Shown: positions 1,136 through 6,176 of the stretch, piece by piece
Position numbering within the stretch: position 1 is the first letter of the stretch
How the letters are laid out: every line of letters begins with the position of its first letter
Assembly: GCF_002250055.1 (NCBI RefSeq)
Contig: NZ_CP018866.1
Location: forward strand, 3,870,869-3,902,868
Direction of reading: 5' to 3'
DNA from: Sutcliffiella cohnii
Lineage (GTDB): Bacteria; Bacillota; Bacilli; Bacillales; Bacillaceae_I
Length of the DNA stretch: 32,000 bases
Translations under genes and position numbers: made by a program
The notes under the pieces: model-generated
The model's input: only the letters and a program-made list of their open reading frames with translations
Database searches by the model: none
Told to the model about the DNA's origin: nothing

Positions 1136-2707
1136 TTATTCTTCATCTTGAGCCATAATATCAATAAGTTTGATTTTAGGGTTTTTATCTTGGAACCAGC
1201 GTAATGAGAAGTCGTTGTCGAATAGTGCAACATAATCGCCATTACGGTCTTTTACTAACATGTTACGGGAATCAAACAAGTTCGTATCGACTTTTTGATC
1301 TTCTAACCAACGAGGGATTTTCGATCCAATCATTTGGTATACAACTTCGACGTTGTATTCCCCTTTCATACGGTATTCAAATACATCTAACTGTAGCTGA
1401 CCAACCGCACCTAAGATGTAATCGTCTGTTCCGTATTGACGGTATAATTGGATGGCACCTTCTTGAACGAGCTGCGTAATACCTTTCCCAAATTGCTTCC
1501 CTTTCATGACGTTTTTCGCTGTTACTTTTACGAAAAGCTCTGGAGCAAACGTTGGGATTTCATCAAACTCGACTTGTTGGTTTCCACTATATAAAGAGTC
1601 ACCAATTTGATACACTCCTGGATCGTAAATACCGATAATATCACCTGGATAAGCGTGCTCTACTGTTTCACGGTCAGATGCTAAAAACTGTTGAGACTGC
1701 GTTAACTTAATCGCTTTATCAGTGCGACTAACTTTTACCGTCATTCCTCTTTCAAACACTCCGGAACAAACGCGTAGGAATGCTAGACGATCACGGTGAG
1801 CCGGATTCATGTTCGCTTGTATTTTGAAAATAAAGCCAGAAAACTGTTCAGATTGCGGCTTCACACTTTCCGCCACTGTTTGACGCGGTTGTGGCTCATT
1901 TGCAAGGTCGATAAACGTTCGGAAAAACATTTCTACACCGAAGTTCGCAATCGCACTTCCGAAAAAGACTGGTGTTTGAAGTCCATTCTTCACTTTTTCA
2001 ATGGAAAAATCGTTTCCTGCCTCTTCTAACAGTTCAAAGTCATCTTTCGCTTGAACAAACGTTGGATGTTCTGAAATTTCTTTCACATCATCTAGCTCAG
2101 AAAAAGGAATATGTTGCTCTTCTTCTTTTCCTTGCCAACGAATGAACACTTCATTGTAACGGTCATACACTCCTAAGAAGCGTTTCCCCATACCAACTGG
2201 CCAGTTCATCGCGTAAGACTCAATTCCTAACACTTCTTCAATTTCTTCTAACAGCTCTAACGGCTCTTTTCCTTCACGGTCTAACTTATTGATGAACGTA
2301 AAGATTGGAATACCACGCATACGACAAACTTTGAAAAGCTTAATCGTTTGTGGCTCCACACCTTTTGTACAGTCGATAATCATTACTGCACTATCTACTG
2401 CTGTTAACGTACGATACGTATCTTCACTGAAGTCTTCGTGTCCTGGAGTATCCAGAATATTAATATGACGGTCCATATATTCAAAACTCATAACACTGGA
2501 AGTTACCGAGATTCCACGTTTCTTCTCAATTTCCATCCAGTCAGACGTAGCAAATTTACCTGATTTTTTACCTTTTACGGTACCCGCTGAACGAATAACG
2601 TTACCAAAAACTAATAATTTTTCTGTTAACGTTGTTTTTCCAGCATCCGGGTGAGAGATAATCGCAAACGTCCTACGACGATCTATTTCATTAGTTAAGT
2701 TGTTCAC
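1136..2707 (-). CDS. prfC: Peptide chain release factor 3 (GTPase)
   Basis: 523 aa. The translational GTPase motifs [17 protein letters not shown] and NKLD are present. Length and overall sequence are typical of RF3. The start codon is GTG. Confidence 0.93.
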
Positions 2708-2800
2708 AAATTCAACCTGCCTCTTCTCATTTTTAGGAATAGAAATATTATAGCAGATATCATTTGTCCGAAGAAATAAAGTTTTTTCCTTTTTACGACT

Positions 2801-3151
2801 TGTGTATAATTAACAGCTATTTTGCGGACTTCTTTCCATATTATTCTGAATATTATCCACATTTCTTACCTAAATATGTTTAATGTACAAACTATTGTGT
2901 ATAACTAGCAAAAATATTGTGAATATAAAATATTTTTCTCAACTACTAATCCACAGACCCTCCATTTTCGCCCTTATTTACTAACAATTGTGCATTTCTT
3001 TTGTGTTTTTGTGTATAAACACTTCGGTAATAGTGAATTAAACCTTTACAGTTGCCGGTATTTATCCACATTTATAGTAATTGTGTATAACTATTTATTT
3101 AATATTGATCATACACAGTTTTATAAACAAGTTGATCGAAAATGTGTATAA
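2801..3151. promoter_or_regulatory. DnaA-box cluster in the prfC / small-ORF divergent intergenic region
   Basis: Perfect TGTGNATAA sites lie at 2801-2809, 2896-2904, 3010-3018, 3082-3090 and 3143-3151 (all TGTGTATAA). Perfect TTATCCACA sites lie at 2853-2861 and 3062-3070. One-mismatch sites lie at 2918-2926, 2947-2955, 3109-3117 and 3121-3129. The last box overlaps a TATAAT at 3147-3152, just upstream of the 3184 ATG. Confidence 0.65.
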
Positions 3152-3183
3152 TAGAAGAAACAGAGAGGAAAGGATGATACAGT

Positions 3184-3447
3184 ATGGCAAAAAGTAAAGC
3201 AAAGAAATATCGTGAAAAGCTAGAACGAGAAGGAAAGCGTAATCCTGAAAACGGTCGTGGAGTGTATGCACTAGCGAACTTAACGACGAAGAAAACAAAA
3301 ACAAAGCAAGAAAAACTTCAGCAATTATACAAAAAAGAACGACAATCCCGTTATCTAGATGATAGAGGTGAAAAGTCGTTCTTTTATTTTTGTATTTTTA
3401 AACAAACCATACGAGATATATTCCAAGAGCCGCAAATGATAAAATAA
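3184..3447 (+). CDS. Small basic hypothetical protein (87 aa)
   Basis: ATG start with GAGAGGAAAGGA 9 nt upstream and a TATAAT at 3147-3152. The N-terminal 60 aa are Lys/Arg/Glu-rich. The last ~50 nt overlap the 3' end of the convergent 3398..3592 gene, so the C-terminus is uncertain. Confidence 0.45.
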   Translation: MAKSKAKKYREKLEREGKRNPENGRGVYALANLTTKKTKTKQEKLQQLYKKERQSRYLDDRGEKSFFYFCIFKQTIRDIFQEPQMIK

Positions 3448-3592
3448 TAACAACTGTATAAATTAACGATAAATTAATGCTATTTCTTTTTGCAGCACCA
3501 CGATAGTTTTCATCACTCTTTCCACCTAACATCAATGTCGCAATTGCAGATCCCACTCCGATAAGCAATGCTACCACAATGGCAATTTCCAT
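3398..3592 (-). CDS. Small two-helix membrane protein (64 aa from the preferred start)
   Basis: The track ORF is 3398..3622. The ATG at 3592 is preceded by AAGGAGG and begins the first hydrophobic helix (MEIAIVVALLIGVG...). A second helix lies at the C-terminus. Confidence 0.55.
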   Translation of the reverse strand: MEIAIVVALLIGVGSAIATLMLGGKSDENYRGAAKRNSINLSLIYTVVIILSFAALGIYLVWFV

Positions 3593-3744
3593 TTTTCCGA
3601 AAACCTCCTTAACCATTTGCAATGAATACCTTTACATCTAGATTATCATAATTACCATAAATATGTTATCTACAATTACAACATAAATATGGCAGAAATA
3701 TCTTAAATGAAAGAAAAGATTACCTTTTCAAAAAAAGCAAACTT

Positions 3745-5415
3745 TTAATATTCCTTTTCTGTTAAAGGGTTAGTAGTCTCATAAATTAGCTGTTCCAACT
3801 CTTGTTTATACTCTTTGTACTGCTCATCTGTCCATCGGAACACTTTTTTCATAAATATTGTAACAGAATTCTTATGCTCAAGTACCCAACGAATATTAAA
3901 GAAGATTGCCCCAGTACGTCTAATGAAGAAGTCACTCGGTGTAAATGCCAGCTCATAATCGATACTATATTTTAAGCAAGCATAAACAACTGGATCAAGT
4001 CCTTCCTCTTTAGCCTTTTCTTTCTCTTTTTTGTATATGTTAAAAACTATATCTACATTAGATCCGTAGCGGTAAATTAGTTGTTCTGCAATTTCTTCGC
4101 TAAAACCAATATTCTTTACTTCCATCCGCTTTAGAGTAATAAATTTTTTAAATCCTTCCGAACCACCTACATCCCCACCGGAGATTGGTAAGGACTTCGT
4201 ACTAGCATTCGGAAATCTAATTCCTTCTTCTTTATGAATTTGCCTAGCAACTACATCTACTATTTGTTCGGCCATTTTCCGATACCCGGTTAATTTACCT
4301 CCTGCAATGGAAATAAAATTAGATTCCGAGATAAATATTTCATCCCGCCGAGAAATTTCAGATGGAGATTTTCCATCTTCATGAATTAACGGTCTAAGCC
4401 CAGCCCAGCTTGATTCAACATCATTAGCTGATATTTTTACGTCAGGAAACATAAAGTCAATCGCTGTTAAAACATAATCACGGTCTTCAACTGTAACTTT
4501 CGGATGAGCAATGTCCCCTTTATATACTGTGTCTGTCGTACCTACGTAAGTTTTTCCGTCTCTCGGAACAGCAAAGATCATCCGCCCATCCTTTGTATCA
4601 AAATAAATAGCCTGCTTGAGCGGAAACCTTTTTCCATCAAACACTAAATGAATTCCTTTCGTTAATTGCAACGTTTTCCCTTTTTTTGACTTATCCATTT
4701 CTCTTAACGTATCGACCCATGGACCTGCCGCGTTCACCGTTTTTTTCGCACGTATTTCTACTATAGACCCATCTATTAAGTCTTCCGCTTTCACACCAAC
4801 TACTTTATTATTTTCGTAAACTAATGCAACAACCTGCATATAATTAAGAGCTTGTGCTCCCATTTCAACAGCCTTTTTCATCACTTCAAGCGTTAAACGG
4901 GCATCATCGGTTTTATATTCCACATACAAACCCGACCCCTTCAAACCAGTCCGTTTTAATAGGGGTTCTCGTGCTATTGCAACTTCAGGCTTTAACATTT
5001 TTCTTCGTTCACTTTTTTTAACACCAGCTAAAAAATCATACACTTTCAATCCGATACTCGTCGTGAGAGGGCCAAACGTTCCTCCTTTGTAGAACGGTAA
5101 CATCATCCATTCCGGTGTTGTGACATGTGGGCCATTTTCATACACAATCGCACGCTCTTTCCCAACTTCTGCAACAACTCCGATTTCGAATTGTTTTAAA
5201 TACCGTAATCCACCATGGACAAGTTTTGTTGATCGGCTCGATGTGCCCGCAGCGAAGTCTTGCATTTCCACAACGGCAACCTTCATTCCCCTCGTAGCTG
5301 CATCTAAAGCAATGCCAGCACCAGTAATTCCACCACCAATAACTAGTAGATCTAACGGTTCACTTTGCATTTTTTTCTTTATTTCTACTCTATTTACATT
5401 AGAAAATTGCATCAT
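3745..5415 (-). CDS. glpD: Aerobic glycerol-3-phosphate dehydrogenase (FAD)
   Basis: FAD-binding DLLVIGGGITGAG motif. The STKLVHGGLRYL and GGKLTGYRKMAE blocks are close to B. subtilis GlpD along the full length. The preferred start is MMQFS at 5415, with AAAGGA 6 nt upstream. The track ORF starts at 5430. Confidence 0.95.
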   Translation of the reverse strand: MMQFSNVNRVEIKKKMQSEPLDLLVIGGGITGAGIALDAATRGMKVAVVEMQDFAAGTSSRSTKLVHGGLRYLKQFEIGVVAEVGKERAIVYENGPHVTTPEWMMLPFYKGGTFGPLTTSIGLKVYDFLAGVKKSERRKMLKPEVAIAREPLLKRTGLKGSGLYVEYKTDDARLTLEVMKKAVEMGAQALNYMQVVALVYENNKVVGVKAEDLIDGSIVEIRAKKTVNAAGPWVDTLREMDKSKKGKTLQLTKGIHLVFDGKRFPLKQAIYFDTKDGRMIFAVPRDGKTYVGTTDTVYKGDIAHPKVTVEDRDYVLTAIDFMFPDVKISANDVESSWAGLRPLIHEDGKSPSEISRRDEIFISESNFISIAGGKLTGYRKMAEQIVDVVARQIHKEEGIRFPNASTKSLPISGGDVGGSEGFKKFITLKRMEVKNIGFSEEIAEQLIYRYGSNVDIVFNIYKKEKEKAKEEGLDPVVYACLKYSIDYELAFTPSDFFIRRTGAIFFNIRWVLEHKNSVTIFMKKVFRWTDEQYKEYKQELEQLIYETTNPLTEKEY

Positions 5416-5503
5416 AATCGTTCCTTTCATAATAGCAATATATTATTCAAGACAACTGTTTAGCACTCACTTTAAAAATCTAGCAATGAGAGGCGAAAAA
5501 TAA

Positions 5504-5565
5504 CAAAAAAGAGACCACAAATCAACTCTATTTTCGTTTCCGAAAAGTAGAGTGATGTGGTCTCT
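5504..5565 (-). terminator. glpD leader hairpin plus U-tract, the probable GlpP-controlled terminator
   Basis: A long imperfect hairpin pairs 5510-5530 with 5548-5565 (outer stem AGAGACCACA / TGTGGTCTCT, inner stem TTTTCG/CGAAAA). On the minus strand it is followed by a U6 run (5504-5509). It lies between glpP and glpD, about 90 nt upstream of the glpD start. Confidence 0.7.
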
Positions 5566-5642
5566 CGAGTTCTCCGCCCAAATTATTAACTTAGTTTCAT
5601 TATAACAATATTCTAAAAAAATATAAAGCAATGAATCATCTA

Positions 5643-6176
5643 TTACCAAAGATTCCTATTGGAGGTCGTAACAGCAATGGCACCACTTTTTAAAGAATGC
5701 TGCACATCCTCTTCTGTACGGATTAATCCACCCGCTATTAGGGGAATGCCTGTTTTTTCGATAATTTCTTTATTAACACTCGGTATAATTCCGGGAAGTA
5801 CTTCTATGTAGTCCGGCTGAACTTTTTTGCATAGCTTTAAATTATGATCAAGTGCATGACTATCTAAGGCGAATAACCGTTGGATTCCAATTACTTGGTG
5901 CTTTTTTGCAAAAGTTATAACGTTCGCTCTCGTTGATATAATCCCATCTATTTTCACGTTATTAATTAAATACTCTAGTCCATATTCATCCACTTTTAAT
6001 CCTTGAATGAGATCAGCATGCATCAATACTTTTTTGTTATGCTGTTTCGCATGCTTCACGATACTGTCTACTTGGGAAAGTCGTGTTTCTAAAAATATAA
6101 TATGCTCATGGTCTTTTTTTAGCACATATTCAAAGTCCTTTATATTACGGATAGCAGGGATAACAGTAGGAAACAA
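5643..6176 (-). CDS. glpP: Glycerol uptake operon antiterminator GlpP
   Basis: 177 aa. The blocks ISTRANV, IQRLF.LDS and EVLPGIIP...TGIP.IAGG.IRTEED are characteristic of B. subtilis GlpP. Confidence 0.9.
   Translation of the reverse strand: MFPTVIPAIRNIKDFEYVLKKDHEHIIFLETRLSQVDSIVKHAKQHNKKVLMHADLIQGLKVDEYGLEYLINNVKIDGIISTRANVITFAKKHQVIGIQRLFALDSHALDHNLKLCKKVQPDYIEVLPGIIPSVNKEIIEKTGIPLIAGGLIRTEEDVQHSLKSGAIAVTTSNRNLW

Follow-up and report, generated by a model that had tools for sequence, protein, structure and literature searches.

A dense DnaA-box cluster in the divergent prfC-brfA spacer of Sutcliffiella cohnii, a candidate extra-origin DnaA-binding region

Results

The prfC-brfA locus

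The stretch of DNA analysed here (the window) comprises 32,000 nucleotides (3,870,869-3,902,868) of the S. cohnii genome, which is 4.9 Mb in size, assembled as a single contig, and has a G+C content of 35.8%. Positions refer to the window unless given in kb or Mb or with a contig name. Two genes diverge from an AT-rich spacer, and the locus has the following features:

1136-2707, minus strand: prfC, peptide chain release factor RF3, with GTP_EFTU, EF-G_D2, and RF3_C domains
2708-3183: divergent prfC-brfA spacer, 476 bp, delimited by the flanking ORFs
2747-2755, minus strand: predicted extended -10 element of prfC, TGCTATAAT, conserved in other Sutcliffiella
3124-3152, plus strand: predicted sigma-A promoter of brfA, TAAACA, 17-bp spacer, TATAAT (10/12 consensus, the best match of the region)
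3184-3447, plus strand: brfA (yqkK homologue), predicted RF2-dependent back-up ribosome rescue factor, nominally 87 codons, about 68 of them upstream of the terminator T-tract
3334-3391, both strands: intrinsic terminator within the brfA frame, stem 3334-3343 / 3375-3384 followed by a T-tract

A preliminary description of this DNA had placed a 476-bp divergent spacer between prfC and an ORF for a small basic protein. The ORFs and the GTP_EFTU and RF3_C domains agree with the former, and the ORF at 3184 stands as a real protein-coding gene with an identity that can now be assigned. A profile of 22 homologues compared with the PDB matched one chain only, chain y of 6SZS, 'YqkK' (E=1.8e-11, residues 1-62), and R25 is invariant in the alignment of the 22 BrfA sequences. 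In B. subtilis, YqkK is known as BrfA and serves as the RF2-dependent back-up factor for ribosome rescue, and its Arg25, a residue that every BrfA retains, stacks on U1915 of the 23S rRNA (PMC6881298). Moreover, across 79 homologues the first 44 codons show 0.27, 0.20, and 0.55 differences per site at codon positions 1, 2, and 3, respectively; since the differences fall mostly in the third position, the ORF is protein-coding. Neither Pfam nor NCBIfam contains a family model for BrfA. By homology, the gene at 3184-3447 is brfA (YqkK). A second candidate for the small ORF, an Sda-like checkpoint gene, was rejected because sda is located elsewhere in the genome with boxes of its own and the ORF is brfA. 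BrfA has been described as limited to a subset of the Bacillaceae (PMC6881298); homologues were also observed in Neobacillus, Priestia, Fictibacillus, Cytobacillus, Fredinandcohnia, Paenibacillus, Amphibacillus, Chengkuizengella, and Listeria, including L. monocytogenes. The gene for RF2, the partner of BrfA, is likewise present in the window, with prfB located 15 kb away.

In B. subtilis, a rho-independent terminator in the brfA ORF gives rise to a non-stop mRNA, and the protein is normally destroyed after tmRNA tagging (PMC6881298). The corresponding hairpin of S. cohnii folds with -24.6 kcal/mol (z = -5.5). The T-tract ends at position 3391 and the nominal ORF continues 55 nt past it, with the stop codon at 3445-3447; the main transcript is probably too short for the annotated C-terminus of BrfA ever to be translated from it. 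Past 'FYF', the tails of the BrfA proteins show no relation in either sequence or length. Inspection by eye revealed hairpins of differing sequence at the same place in other genera (CGAC/GTCG, CCAT/ATGG, and GATTATC/GATAATC), the stems of which differ between genera yet stay complementary. RNAalifold returned no consensus structure for the brfA 3′ ends because the stems are offset between genera, and an Rfam scan of positions 2500-3800 yielded sub-threshold matches only, located on the brfA terminator hairpin. Because either strand of the hairpin reads as a terminator, it is predicted to end the convergent ORF for a 74-aa membrane protein (3398-3622, minus strand) as well, which accounts for the tail-to-tail overlap of the two ORFs by 50 nt.

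Downstream of brfA (3745-6176 region), S. cohnii carries this 74-aa membrane ORF and then glpD-glpP. At that place, S. horikoshii and S. halmapala (L012, L017) harbour a putative FGGY sugar-kinase gene and a putative gene for a large permease-like membrane protein, and in S. deserti minJ and ctpB are found approximately 2 kb downstream of brfA, with no match to glpD or glpP between.

The spacer contains an array of DnaA boxes

Seven perfect matches to the DnaA-box consensus TTATNCACA are located within 351 bp of the spacer (2801-3151), and eight in the whole 32-kb window. In shuffled versions of the window 1.58 +/- 1.16 matches are expected, and the number of eight was attained in none of 100 shuffles. 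The individual sites are:

2801-2809, minus strand: box 1, perfect, TTATACACA; about 65 bp upstream of the predicted prfC transcription start
2853-2861, plus strand: box 2, perfect, TTATCCACA (strict consensus)
2896-2904, minus strand: box 3, perfect, TTATACACA
2918-2926, minus strand: one-mismatch box, ATATTCACA
2947-2955, plus strand: one-mismatch box, TAATCCACA
3010-3018, minus strand: box 4, perfect, TTATACACA
3062-3070, plus strand: box 5, perfect, TTATCCACA
3082-3090, minus strand: box 6, perfect, TTATACACA
3109-3117, plus strand: one-mismatch box, TCATACACA; just upstream of the predicted brfA -35 element
3121-3129, plus strand: one-mismatch box, TTATAAACA; covers the predicted brfA -35 hexamer
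3143-3151, minus strand: box 7, perfect, TTATACACA; overlaps the predicted brfA -10 hexamer

The seven perfect boxes, five on the minus and two on the plus strand, lie at exactly the coordinates claimed for them in the preliminary description. The at least four one-mismatch sites that it mentioned were recovered at 2918, 2947, 3109, and 3121, and a fifth one is present at position 2700, over the start of prfC. In total, the array holds seven perfect and four to five one-mismatch boxes in about 350-450 bp, spaced 12-63 bp centre to centre. In line with the earlier statement that such a motif should occur much less than once in this span, approximately 0.018 boxes are expected per 351 bp.

The perfect boxes follow a 10.4-bp phase, with a resultant length of R=0.885 (seven boxes; P ~0.005 if 10.4-10.6 bp alone is considered, 0.04 when scanning 9-12 bp), an outcome that over 340 bp is sensitive to the exact helical repeat. 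Boxes phased in this manner would share one face of the helix, favouring cooperative binding, which we regard as a hint only. Helical phasing was absent from the other clusters tested.

Three short ORFs (41-53 aa) within the spacer were considered as coding genes and are probably not genes; those at 2946-3071 and 2990-3151 are affected by 1-bp indels between strains.

The prfC-brfA cluster ranks first in the genome

The S. cohnii genome contains 253 perfect boxes in 4.9 Mb, corresponding to about 0.05 per kb, and the prfC-brfA locus is the only place in the whole genome where seven of them fall within 500 bp. For a genome-wide comparison, windows of 400 bp were scored with 3 for each perfect and 1 for each one-mismatch box, and the resulting loci were named through the ORFs flanking each:

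Rank 1: prfC-brfA locus, score 25
Rank 2: rpmH-dnaA, score 20
Rank 3: ywlC, score 18
Rank 4: gcp-ydiF, score 16
Rank 5: yydA, score 15
Rank 6: dnaA-dnaN, score 13
Rank 7: locus at 102.5 kb, score 11
Rank 8, shared: upstream of sda, score 10
Rank 8, shared: jag-thdF, score 10

The scan, which had been proposed in order to rank the locus against oriC, thus places the prfC-brfA cluster first, above both halves of oriC, with or without one-mismatch sites being counted. B. subtilis DnaA occupies eight regions in vivo (PMC3245932, PMC4447404), and for seven of them the orthologous position appears in this ranking; the box score is meaningful because these known targets are recovered. The prfC-brfA cluster is located at 3.874 Mb and dnaA at 4.596 Mb, 722 kb or 53 degrees apart, which puts the cluster about one third of the way down one replichore.

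Two further loci of the list deserve description. The cluster at 102.5 kb (G000:C1:102457-102856), comprising three perfect TTATCCACA and two one-mismatch boxes, is without a B. subtilis counterpart. It is flanked by the 3′ end of a gene encoding 647 aa, in which MutS domain V is the sole Pfam domain matched, and by a gene for a 117-aa membrane protein, and it lies approximately 406 kb from oriC on the other replichore than the prfC-brfA cluster. The sda gene carries its box cluster directly upstream (G000:C1:3153469-3153868), as in B. subtilis, and a second ORF of the Sda family (51 bits) is present at 1.016 Mb (G000:C1:1015570-1015689).

The cluster is confined to one lineage and conserved within it

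The preliminary description had suggested examining the conservation of the boxes in related genomes, and the outcome is twofold: the boxes are kept in S. cohnii-like sequences and are absent from 80 other brfA loci and from other Sutcliffiella. None of 80 brfA loci of other species contains a perfect box within the 700 bp upstream of the gene. General control of brfA or prfC by DnaA was accordingly rejected, both on this count and because other Sutcliffiella are without the cluster. In other Sutcliffiella and allied strains, brfA likewise diverges from prfC at 15 loci, where the spacer measures about 155-165 bp as compared with 476 bp in S. cohnii. This divergent pairing was seen in S. cohnii and at the 15 loci (L009-L023); none of the remaining genera sampled showed it. 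Of the S. cohnii spacer, the 70 bp or so next to prfC, which include the predicted prfC -10 element, are all that aligns with the spacers of the relatives; the ATTATAGCAGA block of the prfC promoter is kept in 9/9 aligned spacers. The brfA promoter and ribosome-binding site differ between S. cohnii and the other Sutcliffiella. Given the short spacers of the relatives and an alignment limited to 70 bp, the approximately 315 bp that carry the boxes and a new predicted brfA promoter are specific to the S. cohnii lineage, as judged from the genomes compared.

As to the source of the extra DNA, a mobile or plasmid origin was rejected, because the 315 bp gave no plasmid or phage match and have no second copy in the genome. 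Relocation of the cluster from vpr, which is located 10 kb away in the window, was rejected as well, since the region upstream of vpr is free of boxes here and wherever a vpr locus was recovered in the 22 other genomes of the family. A metagenome scan for closer relatives returned distant brfA loci only.

Within the lineage, all boxes covered are kept in a further genome (L091) and in two metagenome contigs (L092, L093), and all seven perfect boxes are kept in the three S. cohnii-like sequences window, L091, and L093. These three differ at 19 sites. None of them touches a perfect box (seven boxes, P=0.067), and the same is true of the combined set of seven perfect and four one-mismatch boxes (P=0.012). 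The bases adjacent to boxes vary at 3019, 3074, and 3079, and the 9-mers are fixed. Because the three sequences are very close, this is modest evidence that the boxes are under constraint within the S. cohnii lineage.

A single genome of the sister genus (G001) contains a cluster of its own, with seven perfect boxes in 330 bp and several one-mismatch sites (L138, G001:C1:3282000-3286000, positions 2028-2354). The spacer that houses it separates a DoxX gene from a divergent gene for an FGGY carbohydrate kinase. The cluster is located approximately 650 kb from the dnaA gene of G001, and there are no boxes at G001 prfC. This agrees with candidate clusters having been found upstream of different genes in different Bacillus species (PMC3245932). 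Turnover of such clusters seems to be normal in the family.

A neutral explanation was also considered, in which small duplications recently expanded an AT-rich spacer and happened to multiply a box unit, so that DnaA may bind while nothing depends on the binding. The confinement of the cluster to one species-level lineage would fit, as would the weak direct-repeat families around several boxes (20-31 nt, 71-80% identity), the common orientation of all five TTATACACA boxes, and a conservation argument drawn from three near-identical sequences. However, the flanks of the repeats are poorly alike outside cores of 9-10 nt, yet all seven cores are perfect, unlike what decay after duplication would leave behind. 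Moreover, the boxes contain no variable sites, two of them are of the other type and in the opposite orientation, and the segment has no other copy in the genome, in plasmids, or in phages. We therefore regard a purely neutral origin as rather improbable, and favour an array that serves DnaA binding.

The boxes resemble the DnaA sites of B. subtilis

The DnaA protein of S. cohnii matches B. subtilis DnaA (PDB 8BTG) over its full length with 848 bits, and owing to this closeness the same sequence preference can be assumed for both proteins. In B. subtilis, DnaA binding in vivo is limited to regions with box arrays (PMC4447404). The tightest of these is ywcI-vpr, with an apparent Kd of 0.13 uM, lower than that of any other region. 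It lies upstream of both divergent genes and has 11 sites in the 300 bp surrounding the peak; its predicted sites include four TTATACACA and one TTATCCACA (PMC4447404). The main box type of the S. cohnii spacer is, by sequence, the one that dominates this highest-affinity cluster.

A different regulator could nevertheless own the five TTGTGTATAA(C/T) sites, their match to the DnaA consensus being coincidental. A T precedes TGTG in four of the five TTATACACA sites, all five point in the same direction, and a 14-mer, ATTGTGTATAACTA, is present twice. Flanks conserved beyond the needs of DnaA, which had been named as the mark of such an operator, were not found: in the five copies the 9-mer is followed by T, C, A, C, and T, and this base varies between strains at 3019, so that the flanks change by strain and by copy around fixed 9-mers. 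In the genome, TTATACACA occurs at 56 sites and clusters at no second place, nor does the extended word TTGTGTATAA(C/T) form another cluster. In addition, the sites showed no palindromic partner, they are interspersed with two canonical TTATCCACA boxes and with several boxes of other types that have one mismatch, and the 9-mer TTATACACA is itself a measured DnaA site in B. subtilis. An operator for another protein is thus quite unlikely, and the rank of the cluster, the box type, the initiator, and the flanks all support what the preliminary description had proposed, i.e., an extra-oriC DnaA-box cluster and/or a DnaA-repressed promoter.

Boxes overlap the predicted brfA promoter

As noted before, box 7 overlaps the TATAAT at 3147-3152, which turned out to belong to the best sigma-A-like match of the region. 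An alternative reading is that the TGTGTATAA(T/C/A) words are not boxes for a protein and form a row of -10-like promoter elements aimed at brfA. All five are directed toward brfA, and two of the five copies read TGTGTATAAT, which contains a perfect TATAAT (2805-2810 and 3147-3152). An acceptable -35 partner, however, exists for the copy at 3147 only, the other three copies are TATAAC or TATAAA, and the two TTATCCACA boxes and the one-mismatch sites would be left unexplained, which makes a row of promoter elements very unlikely as compared with DnaA boxes.

Finally, it is highly unlikely that the segment is an additional replication origin or the relic of one, such as an integrated element might have left, even though the spacer is AT-rich and holds more perfect boxes than either half of oriC, because the cumulative GC skew of the genome shows a single minimum at dnaA (4.58 Mb), a single maximum (2.34 Mb), and no sign of a second origin, both flanking genes are core genes with conserved synteny, a replication gene and plasmid or phage matches are absent, and no unwinding element or DnaA-trio run was seen when the sequence was read by eye.

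Discussion

Taken together, these results suggest that the S. cohnii spacer is a recently evolved extra-origin cluster (DBC) of the B. subtilis type, which binds DnaA, probably represses brfA, and may titrate DnaA. We assign this reading a probability of roughly 65%. The three activities differ in how well they can be predicted. From the number of the boxes and the similarity of the DnaA proteins we infer occupancy, and it is quite likely that the fragment is a strong DnaA-binding region: DnaA would bind cooperatively to the seven perfect and four to five one-mismatch boxes over 350 bp.

With regard to transcription, brfA is predicted from the geometry of the boxes to be repressed by occlusion, and prfC should be affected directly to a small extent or not at all. 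As boxes lie over the predicted -10 and -35 elements of brfA and just upstream, their occupancy would block RNA polymerase and thereby repress the gene. We consider repression of brfA through the array somewhat better than an even bet.

Concerning replication, the array, which lies 722 kb (53 degrees) from oriC, could hold about a dozen DnaA molecules and would thereby join the chromosomal sites that titrate DnaA and restrain initiation. A measurable effect on initiation is nonetheless doubtful. This low estimate reflects that only two of six B. subtilis clusters measurably affect initiation and that the titration effect in B. subtilis falls with the distance from oriC (PMC3245932). Clusters of this kind usually sit near the origin, with sda as an exception. 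In B. subtilis, gcp-ydiF lies about 54 degrees from oriC (coordinate in PMC4447404) and sda about 136 degrees; at 53 degrees, the prfC-brfA cluster falls within the range of the B. subtilis clusters, farther out than most of them.

More speculatively, DnaA might directly gate BrfA in S. cohnii, and possibly RF3 too, which would place BrfA under control at two levels, by DnaA at transcription and by tmRNA tagging of the non-stop product. The array might then represent a helically phased DnaA sink that arose de novo, and an example of rapid turnover between sister lineages. We put this extended scenario forward tentatively.

The pairing of a DnaA cluster with brfA is new, and extra-origin DBCs as a kind are already known from B. 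subtilis. Our literature search found no paper linking DnaA with BrfA or with prfC, and yqkK is absent from the supplementary tables of DnaA-bound regions of B. subtilis (PMC4447404). If the proposed control is true, the initiator would govern the ribosome-rescue factor BrfA in S. cohnii. This would suggest that ribosome rescue may be linked to the state of replication, a connection unreported before and restricted to one lineage. To our knowledge, Firmicutes are without the Hda, SeqA, and datA systems, and extra-origin clusters help to set the timing of initiation. The prfC-brfA locus bears on what determines the effectiveness of a cluster and on how fast clusters are gained and lost. It is a natural case of a newly gained cluster that is on paper stronger than oriC, and the box-free close relatives together with a sister genus that made a different gain allow comparison.

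Several known systems share parts of this arrangement. The S. cohnii gene has in common with B. subtilis brfA the sequence homology, the invariant Arg25, and the intrinsic terminator within the ORF that gives a non-stop mRNA. Autoregulation of the dnaA promoter relies on the same boxes over promoter elements, with occlusion implied; the predicted target here is a translation quality-control gene and not dnaA. The proposed repression of brfA likewise mirrors the action of DnaA at the B. subtilis dnaA, ywlC, yydA, and ywcI/vpr promoters. E. coli datA is also a chromosomal cluster of high-affinity DnaA boxes off oriC that lowers the initiation potential, and the likeness is one of functional analogy only. 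datA works with IHF and promotes the hydrolysis of DnaA-ATP; in datA and DARS, an IHF or Fis site together with a defined arrangement of boxes drives DnaA-ATP hydrolysis or nucleotide exchange.

Like the extra-origin DBCs, the prfC-brfA locus carries a box array outside rpmH-dnaA and dnaA-dnaN, in a chromosome with a single skew origin. Of the B. subtilis clusters, ywlC-ywlB, yydA-yycS, gcp-ydiF, thdF-jag, and yqeG-sda have counterparts in the S. cohnii genome, which keeps box clusters at all five orthologous positions; the organism therefore clearly uses the extra-origin cluster system. These five positions are conserved across genera, whereas the prfC-brfA cluster is found in one lineage only. 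The closest parallel in layout is DBC[ywcI-vpr] of B. subtilis, which is likewise an extra-oriC spacer between divergent promoters with about 11-12 sites, TTATACACA being the main perfect box accompanied by TTATCCACA. It helps to restrain initiation (PMC3245932), and DnaA appears to repress both of its flanking units. The two clusters differ in their flanking genes, which are prfC and brfA in S. cohnii, in their angle from oriC (53 degrees versus about 28), and in the spacing of their sites, which are mostly 8-38 bp apart in B. subtilis and 12-63 bp apart, centre to centre, in S. cohnii.
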